In this document: positions 7,288 to 58,561 of the stretch, piece by piece | How positions within the stretch are numbered: position 1 is the first letter of the stretch | Layout: every line of letters begins with the position of its first letter | Origin: Savitreella phatthalungensis | Lineage: Eukaryota | DNA length: 64,000 nucleotides | Reading direction: 5' to 3' | Assembly (NCBI GenBank): GCA_051599415.1 | Contig: AP039698.1 | Span: 62,001 to 126,000 of the forward strand | Program-made: the position numbers and the translations under genes | Notes under the pieces: model-generated | Told to the model about the DNA's origin: nothing | Database searches by the model: none | The model's input: the letters and a program-made list of their open reading frames with translations, nothing else

Positions 7288-8717
7288 TTCGTCTGTATTT
7301 CAGGATCGAGGTGGATGATGCTGACGGCCGTGCCGAGGAGGAAGCTGTGGAAATGCGGATCTCGAGCACGGACAGCCTTCGCAGAATTTCACCAGATGGT
7401 CTATGAGCTGCGCACTGGCCGTGATCGTTGCAGCGCGAGGATGATGGCTGGGCGCACGAGAACTGATCTACCCGATCATCTGCAGATGCCAAGCTGGCGA
7501 TTAGGGCTTGCGGATGCGGTGACTCGGACCTGACTCGGCCGTGCTAAAACGTGACAAGCCGTGGGTCCAGTCGACGGCTGATGACGAGAGAGCTTGAAGT
7601 TCTGTGGAAGAGTCTGTGCGGATTCTAAGTTTGTATAGTGCGAGATGGGAATCTGTAGAAGTCCGTGGTCAATGTCCCTTGCTGCTTGGTACTGGCGATA
7701 GCTCGACACTGTAAACCACACGCCCACACCCACACACAACTGTGCATACATACAAGGCATTTCATGCTTGACTTGAGAGTGGATGCATACTTTGGTCTGT
7801 TGTTTGTTCCTACAATAAACCCAACTAACTTCTTCAAACTGTTTTGAGATGGAGTCAAGGGGAAAAGGGAGAAATTATCAAACTAGCTTCACACCTCGTC
7901 TAGATAAGATTTGTCTGGGACTACTTTTTGACTGATTCTGAATTGGCTCACTTCGTGTTCTACTCTACCAATCTATGGCTCGTCTATGGCTCGTCTATCC
8001 TGTTCTCCATGATCAGATTAAGAATAGAGAGAAATTCAAACGCGCGTGACTTATTGATTTTCCCTCGGCTAGCAGATACACATGGCTAATGACTTGATGC
8101 GCAACCTGACAGAGGTCAGTTTTTGAATTTCCAATGCTGCCTGTTCAGGACCAGCATTAACCCGGACCTCGCTAAGAAGAAATGAAAATATATCGGGCCG
8201 GCGAGTGGACAAGACAGATGCCGACTCTGATCCAAATTAGATTGAGGATGTCGAAACAATTCTGACGCTCATTAGATCCAAGGCACGCCAGGGTGTCTGC
8301 GGGTTTGTCCGTGACAGGTCGGCTTTATCCGCACACTTCTCAGTCTGTGTTGATTGGTCTTCGGCGTTCTCGGACTCTTGCTAACTTCCGTTCATGACCT
8401 GTACTAAGTTTCAACCTTCGTCAATGGACATTTTGAACGATTCTTTCTGGTTGATGCATGAAGAATGAAGTCATCGGACCGTTTTCCCACCAATTTTACT
8501 TTCCGGGCAATGCCACCAAAATATTGAGACCGAGTTTCTTCGCACCGAGGAGAGCTGATCAAACAGAATGGTCAGGCTTGATTACTGGCGACTGTGCGTA
8601 TGGACAGACAGATAGATAAATTCTTCGTGCATTTCCCCCGTCATTGAGCTGCGATTCAAGAAGTACCTTACTCCATTAAACCAGCTCTGCGCGACTGTCT
8701 CTTGATCTACCCAAACT

Positions 8718-8724
8718 TTAGTAA
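8718..8724 (+). promoter_or_regulatory. Candidate Yap1/Pap1 response element upstream of TRR1
   Basis: TTAGTAA about 0.9 kb upstream of TRR1, a known Yap1/Pap1 target in yeasts. A single 7-mer could be chance. Confidence 0.3.
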
Positions 8725-9623
8725 GACGCTACAACTGTGAAAGGCACGGGCGTTACGGACAATGGATCCAGTCCAGCTGAACTGAGTCAATGTGATGATG
8801 TTGATTGTAGTAATGGTGCAAAACGTGTATGCGTGGTTGTCCTTGCGATCGGCCATCATTCATTCCAGTTGTCAAGATCACGCGACCAGAACACTCGAGA
8901 TCTGTCATCAGATGCATGGATGGCGTGCATCTTTGATTGTGATTAATTGATTGCCGTCGATCGAAGTAATTGCAAATCAGACTTTTTCATGCATCGATCA
9001 GATGGAAGGATTGGAAATTCCAGGTCATGACAATTCCGATGGATTCTGGACTCAGATTTAGGAACGGAATTTTCTTATTTGAATTAAAAATTTGATTATG
9101 GTTTTGATTTCCAGGAATATATCTTCTATTCCGCTATTGATGCATGTTCTATAGTCTCTTCAAAACCACAACCATCAAACATATCCGCACAGCCGCGACC
9201 GCCAGTAGCTTGAAGCACGCAGGCCAGCCAAGCATCTCTATTCACATATGTCCACATTCACATTCACACCCATATCCACATCCACCCGCCCACGGCCGTG
9301 ACAAACTTAAAGCACATGATCGAACGTACGTACAAACAGTACATGTGCTTAACTACATACTGAGGCAAATCACCCAAGATCTATTTCTGCAAAGCTCATC
9401 TTCTTTCGACCACACAACGTTCGTGAGTCTTTAGTTTTGAAAGGCTGCTGCCAACGATAGATCTCTCATCACGCTCTCTCGAACCTCCCACACACTGGCA
9501 GGACGTATCACATCCCTAAAGAGACTTACTGCCGTCTCATCAGTCCTCTCAGCTACAGCTCATACTCGTCAGAATAGCAGTAGTACTTCCGCTTCAGCAA
9601 GCGCTTCAGCTACTTCTTTAAGC

Positions 9624-14646: not shown

Positions 14647-15282
14647 ATGTCTGCAAGCTGCATATTCTGCCGAATCATCAAGGGTGAAATCCCGTCTTTC
14701 AAGCTGATCGAGACGGCAAAGTCTTATGCTTTCCTCGACGTCGGCCCTCTCGCCAAGGGGCATGCATTGATCATTCCGAAGGAACATGCGGAGCAAATGC
14801 ATCAGCTGTCGGACGAGTCACTTGCCGATATTCTGCCCGTGGCAAAGAAGGTTGCCAAGGCCGTCGGCGCAGAAAACTACAACATCCTCCAGAACAACGG
14901 CAAAGAAGCTCACCAGGTTGTGATGCACGTACATTTCCACGTAATTCCTAAAAAGGCTATGTCCGACGTATGTCATCCATCTCTGGGATGTCGAGTGTTA
15001 GTACTGATCTATCACAGGAGTCCTCTGGACTTGTCATCGGCTGGCCTGCACAAGAAGGTAAGCTCCAGATCCACCTTGGTGGTTTTACCCCGGAAAGCCC
15101 AGACTCAAGGGATTCTCCAGAACTCGATCTGTCCTTGTTTATACCTGGACGAGCTGTGGCATCTCAAGTCAATCCGGGCGCCTTCACTCCCGGAAAACTT
15201 CAAACGATCATGAACTAACACTCCAACAGCTGACAAGGACGAGCTCAAGAAGTATGCGGAAGAGCTCAAGAGCAAGATGTAG
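14647..15282 (+). CDS. HNT1: HIT-family adenosine monophosphoramidase; exons 14647-14967, 15018-15057, 15230-15282
   Basis: CIFCRIIKGEIPS and HIT motif HVHFHVIP. The spliced C-terminus reads ESSGLVIGWPAQEADKDELKKYAEELKSKM*. Confidence 0.93.
14968..15017 (+). other. HNT1 intron 1 (50 nt)
   Basis: GTATGT...ACTGAT...CACAG; frame-restoring. Confidence 0.9.
15058..15229 (+). other. HNT1 intron 2 (172 nt, unusually long)
   Basis: GTAAGC...ACTAAC...CAACAG; frame-restoring. Confidence 0.88.
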
Positions 15283-15527
15283 TTTCGTTGTCTACACAGA
15301 ACGTATTCGTGACTAAATCTGCCGAAAGACTCGACATGTGAGATCATCTGACCGAGCCATTCAACCGCTTGACATATTATAAGGTGCGTGAGCATATCCG
15401 CGAATAATTTGTTTGGAGTGAACGATACGAGAAAGATTGATCTCGGCCTCGTCCGAAGCAATCTTGTATCCGCCACTACAAAGGCGCTTGCTCGGTTGGG
15501 GTCACGTACGGTGTCGTCAGAAGCATC

Positions 15528-30556: not shown

Positions 30557-31176
30557 GCATGTCTATTGAACATAGTGAACCAGGGAATCTATTCGCGTTG
30601 GGGTCTCGACTGTAATCATCCACTCTCTCGATGTCACTCTGCTCTGTGCCTCACTTCGAGGTCGGAGCTGAAGATTCCGACTTTCCCTCATTCATCTCAA
30701 TGTACTCAAGATTTTGTGAATCCCGTGCTTGATCGCCTAATTAGTGCAATGAATGGCAGTGATTTGTTTACTTTTAGATCGGTTGCCTTTGTTTTGGCTA
30801 ATCTAATGCAGGTGAAAAGCTTATTCCCGATGCCGGTTCAGATTGTCGGAACCCGCAGCGGTGCAACGGTCGGATGAGCTTCTCTACGGGCCTAGAGGGG
30901 CACCCTAACCCGGGGTGACCTGTTTATTGACCTAGCTCCTGTTGCTGCGTCGCTGACACTTGCCAACCTCCATACCGACACTACCAGCCCACCACCAAGA
31001 TCGTCCTCACCACCCCCTTACCAAGGTCTCAGATCCCTGACAGTCAGCCACCAGCCTGCAGCGGAGGTGACACAATCGGCTGTCAAAAGAATCTAAGAGT
31101 CGACGTCGTCGAGATCTGTCAGAATCGACCTTTCGACCTTGAGCTTCCGCTACGCCAAGCCCTTTTCTCGAACACT

Positions 31177-33534
31177 ATGATGCCTATGGCTGGAACTGCC
31201 GCAGCCCCTGTGGCAGGCTATAGCATGTTCGCGGCCAATATGCCAACAGCACACCATCAGCAACAGCAACAAAGCCGTGCTCAACAGCAGCAAGTGGCCT
31301 ACTCAGCCCTTCAGCAGCAGTATGGCGATCAATCAAGCCAAGCTGCCTCATACGCTGTGACAGCCTACCAGTTGCAACAGCAACAGCAGCAGCAGCAGCA
31401 CATGCTGGCTGCGTACATGGCTCAACAGCAACAGCAGCAACAACAACAACATCATCATCAAACACAGCAGCAGAGACCATCTGCTGTCTCCAACCGGTCA
31501 CAAGCACAAGCGGTCGGAACTCTAGCCAATGCAGCGACGGCGTATAATTATGCTGCAGCGATGTCAGCAGCAGCTGTTGCTGGGAACTACGTACCATCAG
31601 CCGAGGATATCTACCCGGCCACACTACCGAGCCCGCCAACGTCTCCACAACCACAATTTTCATGGCAAGTGACGATGGTTGATGAGCACAACCCGACAGA
31701 GACCCATACCTACCACGACATGGGCGGCAGCAGCATGCACAGAGAATTGTCAGCTTCGTCTCTCGGACCAGCGTCAAGCGCTGCTGCCGCTGCGTCTACT
31801 GCACTTGCTGCAACCAAGGCTCGACGGACTCAGATTCCCGCAGAGACGATGGCAAACTTGATCCGCGGCCCTGACCCGGTTGACAATAAATACGTCTGCC
31901 TGTACGGCGGATGCATGCGACGATTTGGACGCAAGTATAACATCCAGTCCCACATCCAGACTCACTTGTCCGATCGGCCTTTCCGATGTGGTGTGTGCTC
32001 TGCAGGATTCGTGCGCCGTCATGACCTCGTCAGACACGCACGCATCCACGCCGACGGGAAAGAGTTCATGTGTGCGTGTGGAAAAGGGTTCTCGCGTACC
32101 GATGCCCTGAATCGGCACAAGCAGCGGCAGATCTGCGAAGGCGGCAGAATCGAAGCTGCTGCCATGGCCGTCGCTCGTGCAAATGCAGCAGTCGCCAGCA
32201 AGGTCGTTCAACAGCACCAGCAGACTGAGCGAGCGACGCAAAAGACGGCAGCGACGAAGAAGTCTTCGAAGGGTGGCCGTGTGGATAAGGGCGAAGCAAT
32301 GTCTCGTGACGCCTCTGCGCAATCTACGGGAACCGATGACTCATCTCACTCGAGCTCTGCAGCCTCTGCGGCATCTGTCCTCGATGCATATACCCGTCAG
32401 CGCCAGCAGCATACTGCCCAGATGCACATGGCAGCGCACGTGACCGCCGCCTTGGCGTATGGCGTCCCTCCACCGGACGACCTCGACGACGTGCACGGCC
32501 AAGCGAGCGGTGGCGTTGTAGGAGGGCTTCCTTCAGAGGCGAGAGCCATGGATCCAAGGTCGTTGCAGATGCAGCGTGGTCCATCATCGTCCTCAGCGTC
32601 CAGCCGTCGAGCGGCTGCTGCAGCCGCCGCAGCTGTCTCTCTCTCACGAGCGGCCTCACCAGCAGACTTCTACACAGCGCCATCTTCACAGACACTGCAT
32701 CACAGCGGCAACTACCACCACACCCAGCACATCCCACCATCTCTGATCTCGCCAACAGACACGCTCCATCCGGCAGAATTCGATATCGATGCGCAGATGC
32801 GGGCGATGGCAGAGGTACCTGCAGTCCATGTGTCGCTGACTCGACCGCCATCGTCGTCTGATGCGACGCGCGGTGCCGGACGGAAAGGGCGGGGTGGCAA
32901 GGCTGTGGGCGGACAGCGAACTGCAGTGTCCATGTCACCGTCGCTCGCGTACGTGTCGCCGCCGCTGGCTGCGACGGAAGCCGGTCCAGCGTGCACGGAC
33001 GACCCGGCCACAGGCTGGATGACCGACCTGCACACGGCCGCCGCCTCCATGGGTATGCTCCGCACCACCACCGCCACCACCGCAATCTCGAACGACCACG
33101 AGGACGATGATGGACCAAACGGTCCACTCATGGCCAACAGCTTTGCTGAAGCACTCGCAGAGTACCACGGTGCCGGCACAACGCACGATGACGAAAATGA
33201 CAGTGATGAGGACGACGACCACGTCGGGATTTCGCCGCCGTTTGTCACGGCAACCGGAACAGTGAGCACGCTGCGCTCGCGCGACAGAGTTGTGGGTGAT
33301 GATGAGGTTGTGGTTGGAGGTGATGATGGCGAATTGTCTGAGGAAGAGCGTCACAGGGTCGCCGTCATGCGCGCACTGTCGGAATCGCCTAGGCGAGCGA
33401 CGTCCAGGATGGGAGGTCTGTTAGGGGTAGGCGTGGTGGCCGCTGGGGGAAAACGCGCTGGCGGCATAGCCAAAGGCGCAGGAGGCAAAGGCCGGAGAGG
33501 GTACGCGGCTGCAGGTGTAGCAGCTCGCGTATGA
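31177..33534 (+). CDS. C2H2 zinc-finger transcription factor, Ace2/Swi5-like
   Basis: GPDPVDNKYVCLYGGCMRRFGRKYNIQSHIQTHLSDRPFRC..C...FVRRHDLVRHARIH...C.CGKGFSRTDAL.RH....ICEGG; polyQ N-terminus. Confidence 0.88.
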   Translation: MMPMAGTAAAPVAGYSMFAANMPTAHHQQQQQSRAQQQQVAYSALQQQYGDQSSQAASYAVTAYQLQQQQQQQQHMLAAYMAQQQQQQQQQHHHQTQQQRPSAVSNRSQAQAVGTLANAATAYNYAAAMSAAAVAGNYVPSAEDIYPATLPSPPTSPQPQFSWQVTMVDEHNPTETHTYHDMGGSSMHRELSASSLGPASSAAAAASTALAATKARRTQIPAETMANLIRGPDPVDNKYVCLYGGCMRRFGRKYNIQSHIQTHLSDRPFRCGVCSAGFVRRHDLVRHARIHADGKEFMCACGKGFSRTDALNRHKQRQICEGGRIEAAAMAVARANAAVASKVVQQHQQTERATQKTAATKKSSKGGRVDKGEAMSRDASAQSTGTDDSSHSSSAASAASVLDAYTRQRQQHTAQMHMAAHVTAALAYGVPPPDDLDDVHGQASGGVVGGLPSEARAMDPRSLQMQRGPSSSSASSRRAAAAAAAAVSLSRAASPADFYTAPSSQTLHHSGNYHHTQHIPPSLISPTDTLHPAEFDIDAQMRAMAEVPAVHVSLTRPPSSSDATRGAGRKGRGGKAVGGQRTAVSMSPSLAYVSPPLAATEAGPACTDDPATGWMTDLHTAAASMGMLRTTTATTAISNDHEDDDGPNGPLMANSFAEALAEYHGAGTTHDDENDSDEDDDHVGISPPFVTATGTVSTLRSRDRVVGDDEVVVGGDDGELSEEERHRVAVMRALSESPRRATSRMGGLLGVGVVAAGGKRAGGIAKGAGGKGRRGYAAAGVAARV

Positions 33535-33719
33535 ACCCTCTGACAACCTTGCCAGATTTTCAAATCTTTCATTCTTTGTACACACTTGTGCAGCAACACA
33601 CATTACATGACATTTTCGCTTACTGCTCAAGACAGGCTAATATCATAATATGCATATCAGTCGGTGGTGGCCATGTGCTTTTGCCTTGATACGCTTGCCG
33701 TGTGATTGTATGTGCTGGA

Positions 33720-35747
33720 TTAGTGCCGACGTGTATTTCGCGGCGTCTTCACTTTGCTTCCATGCTTCTTTGCAGCTCGACTGTAGCGAGCGGCTTTCTT
33801 AGTCGTCGGTGAGGCGTCGTGGAAACCAGGCTTGCGTGACACGTCACGCTCAAGTGTCAGTGGACGTGAGCCCGGTACGATTTTCCCTCTGGAACCAGGC
33901 AGAACCCGCGGCGGGTACAGCAGATTCAGAGCGTCCACGATGTGCGGCTTTTCGAGCTGAATAGCTTTGGTGAAGAGACACTTCAGAACGGATCGTGGGG
34001 GAATTGCATTTGCGCCATTGATCGCAGACCCGTGAGCTGGGTCGTCGTACAACTCAAATAGAACTTGCACTGCGTCATCTAGCCGATCAAGACGCGCCAG
34101 TGCTTCGATATACCGTGCATGAGTCTGAATATCAGGCGATGTGCCATCACCTGGTATCGCTGCGAGACACGACGATGGCCCAGCGTGCTCTACGTGCGCA
34201 CGGTAAGCATGCCACGCTGTGTTGAGTAGATCGAGATCGCGCGCATCGTAAGCAGCTAAGAGCGCAGTGCGGTAGGTGAAGGGTGACTGCGCCAAGCCAA
34301 GCCTCGCAAAGAGATTCGATGGTCCAAAGCATGCATCCCGCAAAGCGTTGGTGGCTTTGCGTTGGTGCAGGACTCCAATGTACGCATCTAGAAGCTGTGT
34401 GTCAACGGTGTCAGCATCGTGCTCAGCGAGGTAGCGGAGTACACGCTGGGCTTCGTGTGCGGTCTCAGTGGTTGTAAGAACGTCCTTGTCGAGTAGAAGC
34501 CCGCCGGACGATGATTGCGGCAACGGAAGTGCATTCGCAGGATCGAAAACATGATCGACCGGTGTCTTGTCGTACGGCGCCCTGCCGCTCGCGTAGGCAC
34601 GCATTAGCAGCTGCCACATCGTTCGGTCGATTTTCCAGGCCTCATTGACCTCTCCATCGATGACAGCGGCGCGGCTTAGCAGCTCCTTGACTAACTTGCG
34701 CGCGCGGATGAGATCTTGTGCAGTAACACATGCCGCAAGGAGCGCATAGTACGTGATCTTATCGAGCTCGACGCCGTCGCGCTGCATTTGATCGGCGACC
34801 TGCCAAGCTTCAACGAAATACGTCGAACGCGAGGCAAAGACGCGGATCAGAGTGTTGTATGTATATCTGTTAGGCTTGTGTCCTTTTTCTTGCATCTCTG
34901 TGAACAGGTCCTGAGCGCGCTCAGCCGACTTCTCCGGTGATTTTAGACAAGCGTGGATCAGCAGTGAATAGGTGGTGACATCGGGAGCGTACCGTGTAGA
35001 CCTATATTTGAGGGTGTCGAAGATGTCAAAGGCACGCTCAGTTGCACCTGTGCGCACGCAGCATGCCATAAGGGACGTGCTCACGATAAGATCTTGCTCG
35101 ATTCCTGCAACCTCCATCTGGTTGTAGAGTGCCAGGGCCTTGTCGAGGTCGCGAGCCCGAGCGAATGCGCCCATGAGATGGCCGTACGTGTAGCCAGTTG
35201 CGGCGAGCCCTCGATTCTGCATTTCTGCAAAACACGCAATCGCAGTGTCAGCGTTGCCCAGCGTGCTGTGTGCCGCAAGCAACAAATCGTAAGTATGGGC
35301 GTGAGGATTGGTGTGCTGAAGGAGTCGAGTGCCTTGGGTGATCCTACTGGCTGGTCGCATTGCGGCCAGCATCGCATTCGCATCGTTCGTGGAGATTGGA
35401 ACACCTCTTGAGATGATGCGGTCGACGGCAGACGTCCAATCGACATCGTCGCGCGTAATGTCTTTCACTCCAATCGCCTTGGCCAATGAATTATATGGTG
35501 AAGCTCTCCGCGGAGAGGGCAGAACGATCGGCTTTTCTGCAAAGGACAGCGCCGTAGTCACAGCGTCGATGTCCCTCTTGAGGCTGCGCCTGGGAGGCTG
35601 TGGAATAAAGTCGTCCGTTACATCATCGTCATACTGTACTGCCGTTGCGATGCTGCTTGCGGAGCGTGAGGGAGCGACTAGACGCGGAGCGCTTCGCAAT
35701 AGAGCTGTACGTGTCCATGAGGGACACAAAAATGCGAGCGCTCGCAT
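33720..35747 (-). CDS. Mitochondrial pentatricopeptide-repeat protein (Ccm1-like architecture)
   Basis: Arg/Ser-rich presequence; tandem 35-aa PPRs (e.g. PDVTTYSLLIHACLK, KPNRYTYNTLIRVFAS, DKITYYALLAAC). Confidence 0.88.
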   Translation of the reverse strand: MRALAFLCPSWTRTALLRSAPRLVAPSRSASSIATAVQYDDDVTDDFIPQPPRRSLKRDIDAVTTALSFAEKPIVLPSPRRASPYNSLAKAIGVKDITRDDVDWTSAVDRIISRGVPISTNDANAMLAAMRPASRITQGTRLLQHTNPHAHTYDLLLAAHSTLGNADTAIACFAEMQNRGLAATGYTYGHLMGAFARARDLDKALALYNQMEVAGIEQDLIVSTSLMACCVRTGATERAFDIFDTLKYRSTRYAPDVTTYSLLIHACLKSPEKSAERAQDLFTEMQEKGHKPNRYTYNTLIRVFASRSTYFVEAWQVADQMQRDGVELDKITYYALLAACVTAQDLIRARKLVKELLSRAAVIDGEVNEAWKIDRTMWQLLMRAYASGRAPYDKTPVDHVFDPANALPLPQSSSGGLLLDKDVLTTTETAHEAQRVLRYLAEHDADTVDTQLLDAYIGVLHQRKATNALRDACFGPSNLFARLGLAQSPFTYRTALLAAYDARDLDLLNTAWHAYRAHVEHAGPSSCLAAIPGDGTSPDIQTHARYIEALARLDRLDDAVQVLFELYDDPAHGSAINGANAIPPRSVLKCLFTKAIQLEKPHIVDALNLLYPPRVLPGSRGKIVPGSRPLTLERDVSRKPGFHDASPTTKKAARYSRAAKKHGSKVKTPRNTRRH

Positions 35748-47161: not shown

Positions 47162-49404
47162 GACGGACGGCTGTGAGCCCCTCTTAAGCGATGTGATTTG
47201 CTGGCAGTTACTTGGCCAGCCTTGTAATTCCAGGGGACAGCGTGCAGGTGCACAGAGAAGTCGATGTCAGAACAAAGTACGGAGGATCGCTGCCGAGGGT
47301 CTGGACGCCAAGCGAAAAGAGAGAAGAGAGAGAAGAAAGGCGGAAGCACTGGACCACAAAGCTGCAGTTGTATGGGCTGTCGCGCGTGTGAGCTGCTCTC
47401 TAATATTTGTTTGTAAGAGATCGCACAAGAGAAATCGCTGTATCAGAAGCTGTCAATACACGATTAAATAGTTCTCCAGACGCAAAAAATCTTGTGAGCT
47501 TCGGAGCCTACTATGGTGTCCTCGTAGGTCAAGTACTCGAGGACGATGTGCTCGATAATGTTGAGGGCAGACTGAACAGATCAGGGGTTGAGCAAGACAG
47601 AGCAGTGTACGGCCAGCCTAGAAACCTTTGCTGTGGGAGGCGATTTACTCAGGCTGAATGACGAGGACGATCCGATCGATCGCACTTTCTTTACACACGG
47701 GCTCGAAAATTCTGGTCAACTTACTCGGTAATAGTCAGGCCGCAAATATCCTTCTACGAGGCGGCCCGCGCGAAACCGCATAGCTAGAACCTGTCAAAAT
47801 TCGCTCCTGCTGTTGGTACGACCGGCCACCTTCTTGAAAAGTCGACACCGCGACAGGTGTAGAAAAGGCTTGAAAATGTGGATTGAATGTGGCACACTTA
47901 GATCCGTGAGATTTCGTTTATGGAGTACAGAAAAGCCGATGACAGTTCGAGGCCGAGTAACCTTGGGGAGATTGAAATACTGCGAGTAACTACCTACCGT
48001 ATGCTCGAAGAAGTAAGCAGCAGCTGGAAGCGAAGACAAGGATAGGGCTTGCAATGCGTTGACCGCAGAGCTGGTCAAGCACTTCATAGACAATGGGTGA
48101 ATAGACTATCTACAGAATGATCAAGTAATACTATCAAGTACTTGAGCTCAACAAAGGGCTTCGACTTCCATGCGCGCAGCCTCGAATCGAGAGTGCTGGC
48201 GAGAGCGCGAACATGGTGGCAGCGGTAAGAATTCGCCTCAATTGCGCCACCGCCGCTGTGTATATCCATGAACAGTCAAATGTCCATCGACAAGATTTGA
48301 AACAGATTCTGGCTGTTCTAGAATCGCAGCATCCCGGAATTTCAATCAGGAAACCTATATCACCTTGCGCGTTGTGTCACTTCTCCAATCCTACGCGGGT
48401 TGTAATCAAGCTGAAAATTCGACAAAGAAATCCTCATGATTGCGTCACACCGACTTCCACGTCTCACTGGAAACAACCTTGAATACGACCACCCCACATC
48501 TATGCATATCCTCACGAGCGACGATGGTGTGCTGTGTGTAGAAATGTCGTTGTAGTCCGGTATCGAGTTTGTTCAGGCGGGTCCTGCATGTACCGTGGTC
48601 AGGCATCCCGCACGATTTGTTGTTTGGCGATCATCATGCCAACGCATACTCACGTGTGAAAGATGCTCAGGAAAAGTTGATCCCCTCCTCTGGCTAGACC
48701 ACTCCATTTTTCGAGCCGAATGCACATCTCGTCGTGTGAGCACCGCTAGAAGGATGCCCACCCGGAGCGGTGTGCCGACTGCTTTTTCGGAACCTGTATC
48801 CGATAAATGCACCTTGATTGATATAGTCTCCGCGGGTCGATCACTTGTGACAGTTCACAGCGCGCCCCTCTGAATCAGAGGAGAGCACGTTGGTCAGGTT
48901 CTGTCTTGCGTGACCGAGAACCTATCGAGCGAATCGTTATGCAAGTATCGTCTTACGTGTTCAAGGGAATTGTCTAGACTGCTTCCTCGCTCGCTCGGGA
49001 TCGGCCGGGAGTGACTGCTGCATCTAGCGCGACGGTTCGGCCACGATCCCCTGCCCGTGTTAAGAAGCCTCTTTGCACGAGAATCAGCAAGATTGAGCAC
49101 GAGAATTGGCGAGATCGAGCGGATTGCCGTTCTCGCTCGTAGGTACACTTGACCCGTGATCATCCTCGGATCACTCGGAAAAGGGATGCGCGGAGAGTGA
49201 TTCCTTATACCTGCCGCAAGTTCTCGGTGATACTCTAAATGACCTGCACCAATTGAGGTCGCGCTTGTCGGGGTAGAATAGATTAGTACATATGTCAACA
49301 TTAGATACAGTGTTCGGGCTAGTCAGTGTATCAGTCGGTGATAGAGCTAGCATTGCCCTCGCTATTAGAGATTCGATTTTCCTTGGAAGGACCTACGGCC
49401 ATTG

Positions 49405-50517
49405 TCATGCAGCACTCGGGCCATCACCAAAGTCGAGCTTTTGAGCAGGCCTGCTGGGAGATGGCATGAAGTCGTAGGTCAGTTTTGTGGGCGAGACTTT
49501 GAAGGCCGTGCCAGTGTGACCAGAGGTGTCTGGCCGGCCTCCTCGGAGAGCGCTACCTGGATGGTGCGGATTTGTCAAGGCGTTTGCGTGAGCAATCGCC
49601 TGAGAAGGACTCGGTGTGAAATTAAGAAATTCCGAAAGGTTGAAGGCCTGGCCGATCGGCGTGTTGACCTGTGAAGATCCGCGCATCGGTGGTGGAGAAG
49701 AGAACGCCTCAAGTGCACGTGCACTTGTCCGTTTGGGTCGTGCAGGCGATGGCGAGGTCGCCAAGAACAAAAGCAAGTCAGCACCTTCCTCTGTGTCCGG
49801 CTTGAAAGACGAGTGTGAGCGCGTGTGTGGCAATCCACGGCCTGCACTTAGTGGTGGCGGTGTGCTGGGTGCAAGTGGCGGGGTCATGTGTCTGGCGATC
49901 GGATGGCCGTGACCGACCCCGTGACCATGACCGTTGCTCGTCGCACTCGCGTGATATTTCAGCGGGGACGATCCCAATTCTGGCGAATCCGCCTCAAGAC
50001 TATCCGAACGATATCGTTTGAGAGGCGAGATCCGATGAGAGGGATGCCCTGAGGCGCTGCTGCCATTGGCTGCGGCTGCCGCACGAGCGATGGATTGCGA
50101 CATGACTGGTCTATTTGGTGCAGGTACGTGTATCGTCGGTTCGTTATGATTGTGCGGACGTGCGCGTACAGGCAGATCAGGAACGAGGAAGTCGCGGTCG
50201 CGAGAAAGCGGACGCTGCCTTGCACCAGCCGGGTCGCTCGTGATGCTTCCAGGTGCGCTCGTGGAAGCGCTAGATTCGCGTTCAGACTTCCGCGCCGCGT
50301 CTTCCGCCTCCCTTGCCATACGCGACTCGACTGCGTTCAAGGGTAGATTCTGCCATGACCGCGAGATCTTGTGCTGGGCGATCTCAAGACGATCTTTGAG
50401 CGCGCGAGTGATTTTGCCAATTTCAGCTCGCTTGAGGATCAGTTTTGAGAGCGGAGAGTCTGTTGACTCGCCATTTGATGTCTTATCAGACTCGCTGGAT
50501 CTCGAGCCCGGCGGCAT
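49405..50517 (-). CDS. Whi5/Nrm1-family G1/S transcription repressor
   Basis: GTB-like motif RALKDRLEIAQHKISRSWQNLPLNAVE; EEGADLLLFLATSPSP; many S/T-P sites. First ATG at 50517. Confidence 0.78.
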   Translation of the reverse strand: MPPGSRSSESDKTSNGESTDSPLSKLILKRAEIGKITRALKDRLEIAQHKISRSWQNLPLNAVESRMAREAEDAARKSERESSASTSAPGSITSDPAGARQRPLSRDRDFLVPDLPVRARPHNHNEPTIHVPAPNRPVMSQSIARAAAAANGSSASGHPSHRISPLKRYRSDSLEADSPELGSSPLKYHASATSNGHGHGVGHGHPIARHMTPPLAPSTPPPLSAGRGLPHTRSHSSFKPDTEEGADLLLFLATSPSPARPKRTSARALEAFSSPPPMRGSSQVNTPIGQAFNLSEFLNFTPSPSQAIAHANALTNPHHPGSALRGGRPDTSGHTGTAFKVSPTKLTYDFMPSPSRPAQKLDFGDGPSAA

Positions 50518-55445: not shown

Positions 55446-56032
55446 TCTCTCTACCTCTAGACTTCAGCATATGCAAATTCATGACCATGACTCCACTGGA
55501 TCGGTCCGTTCTGACAGCCTTCCTTGTAGTGTCCTCTGTGTATCTGGTACAACTCTACCAGCCAATACGGTTCCCAATTTGTGCATTCAGGTATAGTCGT
55601 CGAGCATATCGCCACTTGCGCCATTGATTCAAACACCGCGACCGTGCGCAGCTACATCCAAAATGCATTATCAATCGGAATTAAGAATGGGAAGGATGAT
55701 AATTGAGATCAGATGAATATTATCGAAATTATATAGGTCTTTGTTAGAAATCATTCGAGCAACAAATCCAAACGCCGGTCCAGAGAACAAAGCCCGAGGT
55801 GGCACAATCGGGTGTCAGTTTCAATGAATTACAGTCGGTCGATCAATCGGCGTCATCGGTTACGCCTTCCACGGATCCTAACTATCCACATCACTCCATA
55901 CACCCTCCCTACGAACACCACAATCACATCCTAGAAACTCCGTCTATCACATATCATTACCCTAGAAGACATACAGTCTGTCCAACTGCAATCATAGGCT
56001 CTTTTACTTCAAAAACAAGTGATCCAGCGCAA

Positions 56033-56347
56033 ATGGCAGCCGTCAAGCAAATCGTCGACAAGGCCATCAGCGAGAACGCTGTTGCAGTGTTCTCCAAGTC
56101 GTACTGCCCGTACTGCAAGGCTGCGAAGGAGACTCTGAACCGAGCGGTGTCTGACGGCAAGTACTACGTGATCGAGCTCGACCACGAGAGCGACGGATCG
56201 GACATTCAGCGATACCTCGCAGAGAAGACTGGCCAGTCGACCGTGCCGAACATCTTCATCAACCACAAGCACATCGGCGGCAACTCGGACCTCCAATCGC
56301 TCTCGAACTCCGGAAAGCTCAAGACTCTGCTCGAGCAGGCAGCGTAA
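56033..56347 (+). CDS. GRX1: Dithiol glutaredoxin (CPYC); candidate alternative N- and C-termini
   Basis: VFSKSYCPYC, TGQSTVPNIFI, HIGGNSDL; first in-frame ATG at 56033. Confidence 0.95.
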   Translation: MAAVKQIVDKAISENAVAVFSKSYCPYCKAAKETLNRAVSDGKYYVIELDHESDGSDIQRYLAEKTGQSTVPNIFINHKHIGGNSDLQSLSNSGKLKTLLEQAA

Positions 56348-56443
56348 GTAGATTCAGGTCACGTCGCAATCACAACAATCCCCTAGAAGTGTATAGCGAT
56401 CTTGGTACCATCAATCCGATGTGCTTAGCTGACGATCGACTAG
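56344..56443 (+). other. Candidate alternative intron overlapping the glutaredoxin stop codon (100 nt)
   Basis: GTAAGT at 56344, GCTGAC at 56428-56433, TAG at 56441-56443; splicing gives GCT CGC TTG TGA (-ARL*). Confidence 0.72.
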
Positions 56444-56533
56444 TCGCTTGTGAGTCCATTTTCCAGGAAGATGGAGCACACTCAGGATGGTAGAGAAATC
56501 ATAAGGTCATATTGATGGGAGTAAACATGTGAT

Positions 56534-58561
56534 CTAGGTGGCTGCATGTGCTTGTGATCTCCGACCTAAATTACGTCGGACATGAAGCACAGATCGACCC
56601 TGGCCTTTGCCTGTGCTCGAGTCGACGTATGGCGCGTTTGTGGTGAGCGCTGTGTTTGACGGCCGATCGAGAATCATGCACGCAGGCATTTCGATCTTGC
56701 CTGTATGTAGCCAGAGTTCCTGCTTGGCGCCTCGCAACTCCAGCCGATCGTATTGGACGGGCGAGATTAGCGAGACGATGCAGGCAGTCCGATCTGCTGC
56801 TGGCACATCATCGCTCGCGGCACAGCGTTTGAAGGTGAAGCCCTTGACAATGCACAACCCGAGCATTAGCTCACGCACATTCGTCGCTTGTTGGTCGTAG
56901 GTAGTGCGCCTGCGGATCTTAAGAGCACTGCATTTCGGATGTGACGTTTCCTCGTAGCCTGTCTTGAGCGACATATCATCCGCAGACTCTTCTTCGGAAT
57001 ATGTCAAGACCATCGCGCAGATGGTCCCATTGACAGCGCTAAGCAGGTCAGCAGGCGCGAGCTCGGTATCTCCGATATCAAAACCACAGACGTTGAAAGC
57101 ACCAGTGCGCTGCGCATTCTGAACGCACGTGGCGTCCAGCAGCACCTGCCATTCTGGTTGCTCGATCAGTGGCGCTGCATTGGCTGAGGATCGGTGGAAG
57201 TATTCGATCATACAGATCTGTCGCAAAATGGCGGCGGTCACGTCTGTCGGACGAGCGGCCGCAGGTCTGTCGGGCGCTAAGTCCCATACTTTGATTTCGT
57301 CCTGAGAAATGTCGTCGGCGCGACCAACGTAGAAACGATCGAGGATATCCACCTCAGTCATTTTCACGAGCTCGAGTGACCCAGTGGCGCTCAGTATGAG
57401 GCTGAGCTGTACGAGCAGATCAAGTCCTGAGCCAGTGATCCAGCCCGGCGTGTTCACAATAATGATCGGTCGTCGATGGCCAGCTTGCGACGTCGGCCGT
57501 CTGAGTTGCTCTAGCACGAGCTCCACTAGAGCCTCGCACTTGTCGAGGTACGCTGTCGTGTCGTCTTTCGGCGTTGTGCTGCCGTACCACTGCTGCAATG
57601 TTGGAGCATCGTTGTCGGGCATCGGGTCTGACAGAGCAGATCTAGCATACCGCGTGGTTTTGATGGGACAAGCTGCAAGCACGCCCGGTGGTGCGAGATC
57701 CGACTGTCCGGGATCCAAATCGACAAGGAAGCCGGTATGCTCGTCTTCGTGGAAGCGCATTCGCTGGCATATCATCCGACACAATGTCGTTTTGCCTGAA
57801 TTCTTGCCACCTACGACGAGCAAGATCCGCAGTTGTTCTCCGACAGCTTCGCTCCCAGCCTCGCGATCAGCAAGACAGTCGTCGATGAGCGCTTGCCAGC
57901 CTACAGGCGTCTGCAGAGATCGCTCGTTACCATGTGGCTCGATTAGGAAGCTTTTAAGTCCGCCCGCGTCCGCATCTCGAGGGCGTTTCCCATCGGTCAG
58001 GGCCAAAACGGCATCGATATCGGGATGATAACAAGTCTTCAGCAAGCCGTATCGATGCAGAGTCTTGAAGGCTGGAGTGGATGCGGACTCAAGCGATATG
58101 GGAACTTTGTCGTGTTCAGGTAGATCGTCCCTCGCTTTGAAAGTTACGAAGCCGTGGACTCTCGAGGAGTTGACGAAGAGGCAGTCACGAGTATTCGTAC
58201 TTCTGCAGGGCGGATGCGAGCCATCAAGCAGCACTCTGTGATCAACAGGTAGGTGTATGGAGCAAATGCCATGCACAGTGAAGCTCTGTCCCGGCTTCAG
58301 CAGAATGCGAGTAGCTCCCTCCTCTTCATGCGTCTCGAGCAACTCTATTGGTACACTTCGCTGAATGACGTCTTGCTCGGCAGCTTCAATAAATTCCACA
58401 TCGTCAGTCTTGGCAGGTGACGGTGGCACATCGACAGGATCCTGTGTCTCGCCGTCACTATTCCCGACCTCGTCTTCTTGAACAACCTCAACTGCGGCCT
58501 GCGCAGCTAGCCTGCGAGCAGCAAATGCGCTGACTGTAGGCTGTGACCTCTTTCTCTTCAT
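56534..58561 (-). CDS. GRC3: Polynucleotide 5'-hydroxyl kinase Grc3/Nol9
   Basis: P-loop GGKNSGKTT, LVDLDPGQSDLAPPG, WYGSTTP, IIVNTPGWITGSG, C-terminal VRRNLGR. Confidence 0.9.
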   Translation of the reverse strand: MKRKRSQPTVSAFAARRLAAQAAVEVVQEDEVGNSDGETQDPVDVPPSPAKTDDVEFIEAAEQDVIQRSVPIELLETHEEEGATRILLKPGQSFTVHGICSIHLPVDHRVLLDGSHPPCRSTNTRDCLFVNSSRVHGFVTFKARDDLPEHDKVPISLESASTPAFKTLHRYGLLKTCYHPDIDAVLALTDGKRPRDADAGGLKSFLIEPHGNERSLQTPVGWQALIDDCLADREAGSEAVGEQLRILLVVGGKNSGKTTLCRMICQRMRFHEDEHTGFLVDLDPGQSDLAPPGVLAACPIKTTRYARSALSDPMPDNDAPTLQQWYGSTTPKDDTTAYLDKCEALVELVLEQLRRPTSQAGHRRPIIIVNTPGWITGSGLDLLVQLSLILSATGSLELVKMTEVDILDRFYVGRADDISQDEIKVWDLAPDRPAAARPTDVTAAILRQICMIEYFHRSSANAAPLIEQPEWQVLLDATCVQNAQRTGAFNVCGFDIGDTELAPADLLSAVNGTICAMVLTYSEEESADDMSLKTGYEETSHPKCSALKIRRRTTYDQQATNVRELMLGLCIVKGFTFKRCAASDDVPAADRTACIVSLISPVQYDRLELRGAKQELWLHTGKIEMPACMILDRPSNTALTTNAPYVDSSTGKGQGRSVLHVRRNLGRRSQAHAAT

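Follow-up and report, generated by a model that had tools for sequence, protein, structure and literature searches.

A candidate peroxisomal glutaredoxin concealed by a stop codon within a putative splice donor in Savitreella phatthalungensis

Can a glutaredoxin (Grx) gene whose reading frame closes on an ordinary stop codon also encode a form addressed to peroxisomes? The question is raised by the 3' end of the Grx gene in a stretch of 64,000 nucleotides (nt) of Savitreella phatthalungensis DNA (contig AP039698.1, positions 62,001 to 126,000 of the forward strand), which is called the window here and in whose own numbering positions are given. The coding sequence ends GCA GCG TAA GT, and its stop codon lies within a consensus 5' splice site, GTAAGT. 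The original prediction held that removal of a short terminal intron would exchange the ending -EQAA for -ARL, a type 1 signal for targeting to peroxisomes (PTS1). On comparative, not direct, grounds, we consider it probable, though well short of certain, that a stop-in-donor intron gives rise to a cryptic peroxisomal Grx. The features concerned are the following, a slash marking the border between exon and intron.

56033-56347, + strand: glutaredoxin open reading frame (ORF), a coding sequence of 104 amino acids (aa)
56033..56343, + strand: class I dithiol Grx with CPYC site, the coding exon that the two forms would share (ORF and PF00462)
56344..56349, + strand: 5' splice site GTAAGT, containing the TAA stop of the unspliced reading (56345-56347); the exon end ..GC/GTAAG is as in the orthologous loci L004 and L021
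56344..56443, + strand: putative intron of 100 nt that would stay in the mRNA of the 104-aa form; it is longer than one and shorter than the other of two verified introns (50 and 172 nt) in a HIT-family gene of the window
56428..56433, + strand: branch-site match GCTGAC; its branch A (56432) precedes the G of the acceptor AG by 11 nt
56441..56443, + strand: putative 3' splice site TAG, the first AG past the branch A (AG at 56442-56443)
56444..56453, + strand: putative mini-exon T CGC TTG TGA, which completes Ala (GC+T) and adds Arg, Leu and a stop to give -AARL

The 104-aa ORF is a class I dithiol glutaredoxin, in which both the family profile and the active-site motifs are found. Pfam family PF00462 (Glutaredoxin) matches residues 17-81 with an E-value of 2.5e-17 and 63.2 bits (cut-off 22.9). 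The diagnostic segments read ...FSKSYCPYCK..., ...TVPNIFI... and ...IGGNSD..., their columns are invariant in a seven-sequence alignment, and they contain the CPYC active site and the TVP and GG..D glutathione-binding motifs that assign the ORF to this class. The closest named relatives are the Grx proteins of Protomyces lactucae-debilis (77% identity) and Taphrina deformans (71%), so the source is probably a Taphrinomycete.

The elements on which the original prediction was built (the GTAAGT donor over the stop, the GCTGAC branch site and the TAG acceptor at the first AG) are exact to the base, and translation of the joined exons confirms the ending that it had derived. Joining 56343 to 56444 in silico gives ...LLEQAARL followed by TGA (56451-56453), a product of 106 aa in which A-R-L, directly before the stop, matches the PTS1 pattern [SAC][KRH][LM]; the unspliced reading ends -QAA without PTS1. 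The putative intron has GT...AG borders, a GTAAGT donor, a CTGAC branch and a first-AG acceptor. According to the proposed mechanism, the terminal 100-nt segment at 56344-56443 would be a real spliceosomal intron, probably used in part, whose 5' splice site G/TAAGT holds the stop. Were the intron kept, TAA would be read in frame and the 104-aa enzyme ending -EQAA would be cytosolic; were it removed, GC/T CGC TTG TGA would be read, and the 106-aa enzyme ending -AARL would carry a type 1 signal that PEX5 could bind. A fraction of the Grx might in this way enter the peroxisomal matrix, with glutathione-dependent disulfide reduction and deglutathionylation as its presumed activities there. We infer that splicing takes place in S. 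phatthalungensis, that both isoforms occur together and that the -AARL form is imported. A second donor-like hexamer, GTGAGT (56450-56455, + strand), lies on the TGA stop of the mini-exon (CTT G/TGAGT) and repeats the stop-in-donor motif; it is probably a chance occurrence, because its use would leave an exon of 6 nt.

The signals within the window are weak evidence by themselves; the weight of the argument lies with the comparative data. Metagenome contigs were scanned and yielded 259 relatives, and the analysis went on with the best 80 loci; the stop was placed in 79 of these, corresponding to 62 unique sequences. None of the best 80 loci is closer than 64% to the window Grx, so the set includes no Taphrinomycete DNA. 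The layout seen in the window recurs in two of the 62 unique loci: the final base of a terminal GCG (Ala) codon is the first of the donor, and the TAA stop falls inside it.

L004: ..GGC/GTAAGG, perfect CTAAC branch, first AG, 129-nt putative intron; predicted product ...KEAGALKAPSKL, ending -PSKL
L021: ..GGC/GTAAGA, CTGAT branch, pyrimidine tract, CAG, 119-nt putative intron; predicted product ...KEAGAIKAARL

L004 is 96% identical to the Grx of Colletotrichum zoysiae and L021 82% identical to that of Ustilaginoidea virens, both being Sordariomycete orthologues, and the exon end ..GC/ is common to both loci and the window. At least two splice-PTS1 loci arose in 9 of 2000 simulations (null mean 0.095). 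L073 likewise carries GTAAGA on its stop, but no acceptor there yields a PTS1, and four loci with G/TAGGA on the stop (L031, L050, L056 and L070) gave none with the acceptors tested.

Endings with and without a PTS1 are also found among annotated proteins. The Sordariomycete end pattern A[LIV][KRTQ][AS] is found in 55 of the 232 homologues listed, and four Fusarium models are extended by a PTS1 (...ALKASKL in P0139 and P0147, ...AVKAAKL in P0145 and P0178). P0383 (106 aa, ...ALKA, 54 contigs) and P0384 (109 aa, ...ALKASKL, 13 contigs) are identical except for the final SKL, and both forms occur inside single 90% clusters. Four of seven further cluster members examined end -SKL or -AKL. Among the Fusarium proteins, P0385 and P0390 end -SKL like P0139 and P0147, and P0399 ends -AKL like P0145 and P0178.

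A PTS1-type ending is encoded in other ways at three further metagenome loci.

L003, 879-911 (Didymella-like fungus): coding frame closing on TGA CTA GAT GG, then an open stretch ending -SKL; 98% to the Didymella pomorum Grx
L022, 1762-1803 (Xylariales-like fungus): coding frame closing on TGA CTA GAT GG, then an open stretch ending -SKL; 81% to the Poronia punctata Grx
L008, 1501-1785: -AKL in the main ORF

The extensions of L003 and L022 comprise 9 and 12 codons, respectively. At least two read-through PTS1 loci were obtained in 28 of 2000 simulations (null mean 0.187), a figure in which the leaky context is not counted. In the accessible part of the source, TGA CTA (G) is described as a leaky context that drives peroxisomal read-through isoforms (PMC4207609), and the TGA CTA G extensions of L003 and L022 are candidates for programmed read-through leading to a peroxisomal isoform. 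The TGA CTG read-through tail of L001, L002 and L013 ends -TKL, which is non-canonical, and was left out of the count. The Mortierellaceae Grx proteins P0013, P0063, P0078 and P0101 end -AKI, which is also non-canonical by the [SAC][KRH][LM] pattern.

Conservation of the hidden PTS1, named with the original prediction as a means of checking it, is therefore found in other fungal classes, by splicing in L004, L021 and the Fusarium models and by read-through in L003 and L022. More broadly, the housekeeping CPYC Grx of Ascomycota may be a multi-compartment enzyme whose hidden peroxisomal isoform has long been kept by interchangeable devices. These would be the stop-in-donor intron in Taphrinomycetes, Hypocreales and Glomerellales, UGA CUA G read-through in Pleosporales and Xylariales, and a plain C-terminal PTS1 elsewhere; for this wider view, devices included, we regard the case as evenly balanced.

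What a real intron of this genome looks like can be judged from the HIT-family gene of the same window.

14647-15283, + strand: HIT-family (Hnt1-like) gene, which needs two introns; the joined product aligns with homologues
14968-15017, + strand: HIT intron 1, 50 nt, GTATGT..CTGAT..CAG
15058-15229, + strand: HIT intron 2, 172 nt, GTAAGC..CTAAC..CAG

The joined HIT product matches homologues through exons 2 and 3, with 101 of 159 local alignments (150 proteins) reaching at least residue 120 and 84 of 159 at least residue 130, and one homologue ends ...GLGIGWPTKEADKGELSKLLEEIKSKM, very similar to the HIT tail of the window. The distance from branch A to AG is 10 and 11 nt in the HIT introns and 11 nt in the Grx candidate, which with this spacing, its 100 nt and its better donor resembles the genome's real introns. 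All that an ORF finder makes of the HIT gene is a frame running from stop to stop, with a spurious 'read-through PTS1'. After splicing, the product has the PTS1-type ending -SKM, and homologues end -SKM, -AKM or -SKL (P0254, P0252, P0287, P0242); the HIT protein looks constitutively peroxisome-tagged, to judge from these tails.

The alternative that survives best is chance alignment, in which an ordinary 3' untranslated region (UTR) carries motifs that were never an intron and the 104-aa cytosolic enzyme is the sole product. We think this unlikely, but it deserves serious weighing, and the observations of this and the next two paragraphs include all those that count against the stop-in-donor intron. 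GTAAGT occurs 14 times in the window vs 14.29 ± 3.62 times in shuffles, and complete triplets of donor, branch and YAG occur 42 times vs 38.0 ± 6.7. Both are chance frequencies, so the branch and the acceptor come nearly free once a donor is given. The argument of the original prediction that four independent signals made chance unlikely was in this respect too generous, as only the in-frame PTS1 is rare; such coincidences are, moreover, to be expected when very many windows are scanned. As a control, the window's 49 non-overlapping ORF ends were put through the same loose splice-PTS1 procedure. Only two of the 49 had both a donor-like site and an acceptor that could be tested; a PTS1 resulted at each, and one of the two is the Grx gene. 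Under loose criteria, a 'splice-PTS1' is hence found at 1 of the 48 other ORF ends, that of a zinc-finger gene.

30931-33534, + strand, and 33531-33785: C2H2 zinc-finger ORF with main end -ARV, the false-positive example of the loose splice-PTS1 scan

This second case is evidently due to chance: the donor, GTATGA, is poor, the 'intron' would measure 195 nt, and the -ARL ending closes an extension of 20 aa that overlaps the next gene in antisense. Chance splice-PTS1 matches occur at the per-cent level under loose rules, and no decision could be reached from the window by itself.

Four sequencing runs, three of them guessed to be RNA and one (X11) that could be RNA or DNA, were available as contigs with a depth of 2.7-5.4, and each contains one near-identical contig over the Grx gene. 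No splice junction is present in the contigs of any of the four runs; contigs drop rare variants, so this is no proof of absence. Only the X11 contig (56022-56405) bridges the donor by at least 31 letters to either side; it follows the genome without a break, which makes it either unspliced or DNA. The X1 contig stops at 56247, that of X2 at 56354 and that of X3 at 56345; X2 reaches only 11 letters past the donor and is not counted as bridging, and 55800-55976 and 56406-56800 are left uncovered by the contigs of the four runs. The X11 contig has at most one difference in 56306-56405, too few data to speak of constraint on the intron. Contigs in 56038-56305 from runs labelled with four organisms show nine differences from the window, eight at third codon positions and one at a first (56051, Ile to Val); the gene is thus present in several close strains under purifying selection.

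Further points of the same tendency come from the tag and from its distribution. The tag adds two residues to the C-terminal helix, with Glu at -6 and no basic residue upstream, and by the rules for PTS1 context such an upstream sequence may make -AARL a weak signal. A cryptic canonical PTS1 is found in only 4 of the 62 unique loci and is a patchy trait. The six nearest proteins (Protomyces, Taphrina and four more) end -IEA, -MVE or -MLA without PTS1; these ends carry no information, since models of this kind break off at whichever stop codon comes first. As to the Fusarium models of 109 aa, they may be ab initio rather than transcript-based; what counts, whatever their origin, is that several families have kept a predicted mini-exon coding for a PTS1 although the introns in front of it are unrelated in sequence.

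Against chance stands the in-frame signal itself. When the donor was held fixed, the 181 nt downstream, up to the neighbour's stop, were shuffled and endings in [SAC][KRH][LM] were counted, a canonical in-frame PTS1 appeared in 55 of 20000 trials (0.00275). Two things are rare here: that a consensus donor should coincide with the stop, and that the acceptor should be followed in frame by a canonical PTS1 and a stop. The branch-to-AG spacing equals that of the verified introns, and the coincidence would have struck the one gene whose orthologues elsewhere have the same layout or a read-through PTS1. As for the roles given to the two forms in the original prediction, retention yielding the short enzyme and splicing the -ARL enzyme, the comparative support from L004, L021 and Fusarium is strong; an RNA joint is the part that the contigs of the four runs did not supply.

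If the intron is real, it might instead be constitutive, so that the 106-aa spliced form would be the true gene model, Grx would be mainly peroxisomal and the 104-aa ORF would be no more than the ORF finder's view. The perfect GTAAGT donor, at least equal in quality to the verified constitutive donors GTATGT and GTAAGC, speaks for this, as do several Fusarium annotations that show the spliced form only. However, the window, L004 and L021, three lineages, all have the stop precisely within the donor, a placement not easily accounted for if the unspliced reading had no importance, and the X11 contig, RNA or DNA, runs unspliced across the donor. The preferred exon end at a donor is ..AG/; the Grx exon end ..GC/ departs from it and would weaken the site, so splicing may stay partial. 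Constitutive splicing is improbable on this evidence. Very improbable indeed is a regulatory 3' UTR intron acting on mRNA level or stability with -ARL incidental: the intron would begin the 3' UTR of the short reading, which by inference suits such a role, but the endings in other lineages are all PTS1-type (-SKL, -AKL, -ARL) despite unrelated intron sequences, so that selection appears to act on the tripeptide.

The window is fungal, with dense, long ORFs that are mostly free of interruption. The upstream neighbour of the Grx gene encodes a DnaJ/TPR protein, and a convergent gene follows downstream.

56534..58561, - strand: convergent neighbour gene with a CLP1_P domain (ORF and Pfam)

The stop of the CLP1_P gene lies 80 nt past that of the mini-exon, and 186 nt are common to both 3' UTRs. 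Upstream of its ATG, the Grx frame is open for 95 codons without an in-frame ATG. Many Sordariomycete orthologues (P0123, P0127, P0135, P0144, P0169, P0178 and others) are annotated with an N-terminal extension of 16-19 residues (MNFFRSFF... or MSFIFRRLF...), which has the look of a mitochondrial presequence translated from a start further upstream; the compartments served by the gene may therefore number three. Gaps of 1-2 kb without long ORFs (7299-9441, 47266-49405 and others) contain no Pfam match in ORFs of at least 45 aa, and represent either extended intergenic DNA or genes whose products lack known domains. No split Pfam domain was found among 150 ORFs from the gaps between long ORFs, where only RRM_1 and HSP9_HSP12 exceeded the cut-off, each in single ORFs, so the gaps look intergenic and the genome intron-poor. 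Scans for introns by joining ORFs were too noisy for use.

If the stop-in-donor intron works as proposed, its product would be the first bona fide peroxisomal glutaredoxin and the missing catalyst between the peroxisomal glutathione pool and protein thiols. No peroxisomal glutaredoxins had been described to date according to the accessible part of one source (PMC10295636). For rat liver peroxisomes, the available portion of another reports no robust thiol-disulfide oxidoreductase activity and no glutaredoxin with a targeting signal, and treats the matrix enzyme as an open question (PMC10245115). A hidden PTS1 on the main fungal Grx, in several classes and by two recoding routes, would offer a concrete and genetically tractable candidate for such a matrix oxidoreductase. 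Standard ORF or gene-model annotation would hide the isoform, as is illustrated by the same Fusarium gene being annotated with and without -SKL. Glutaredoxin goes unmentioned in the text and four supplementary files of PMC4207609 and in the reviews PMC9549241 and PMC3798809, as far as these sources are accessible. A full-text literature search, mostly outside subscription journals, returned no description of such a Grx isoform; the supplements of Freitag et al. (2012) might list one. Grx is probably a new cargo of the known cryptic-PTS1 mechanism, to go by its gene structure and orthologues, and would widen the principle from enzymes of carbon and redox-cofactor metabolism to thiol redox control.

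The closest precedents are glycolytic enzymes. Cryptic PTS1 motifs produced by alternative splicing are known from Ustilago maydis GAPDH and Aspergillus nidulans PGK (Freitag et al., 2012, as cited in the accessible parts of PMC4207609 and PMC3798809). As in these systems, one gene would give a cytosolic form and, by splicing at the 3' end, a C-terminally altered PTS1 form, and different fungi would reach the PTS1 of the same enzyme by splicing or by read-through. In the window, however, the cargo is a thiol-disulfide oxidoreductase, the stop lies within the 5' splice-site consensus, only two residues would be added, and the system is known here from sequence alone. Yarrowia lipolytica Mdh and Candida albicans Gnd1 also use alternative splicing for their peroxisomal forms, as cited in a review (PMC3798809). 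In these genes, too, the presence of a PTS1 hinges on a minor change of splicing at the 3' end, but this is made by an alternative acceptor or donor within the coding sequence, whereas the window would keep or remove a terminal intron.

Read-through at UGA CU(A)(G) is another known route to a PTS1, described by Stiebler et al. (2014; PMC4207609) and reported for mammalian LDHB (PMC4359377). The orthologous Grx loci L003 and L022, with TGA CTA G and an -SKL tail, resemble this system. In the window, the stop reads TAA GTA; this context is not leaky, and the route would be splicing. Enzymes with glutaredoxin-like activity have been assigned to peroxisomes before, namely yeast Gto1 (PMC12904895) and human GSTK1 (PMC10295636), in the available parts of these papers. 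Gto1 and GSTK1 are glutathione transferases with constitutive signals, unlike the classical CPYC glutaredoxin of the window; like them, a peroxisomal Grx would supply glutathione-dependent thiol-disulfide exchange inside peroxisomes.
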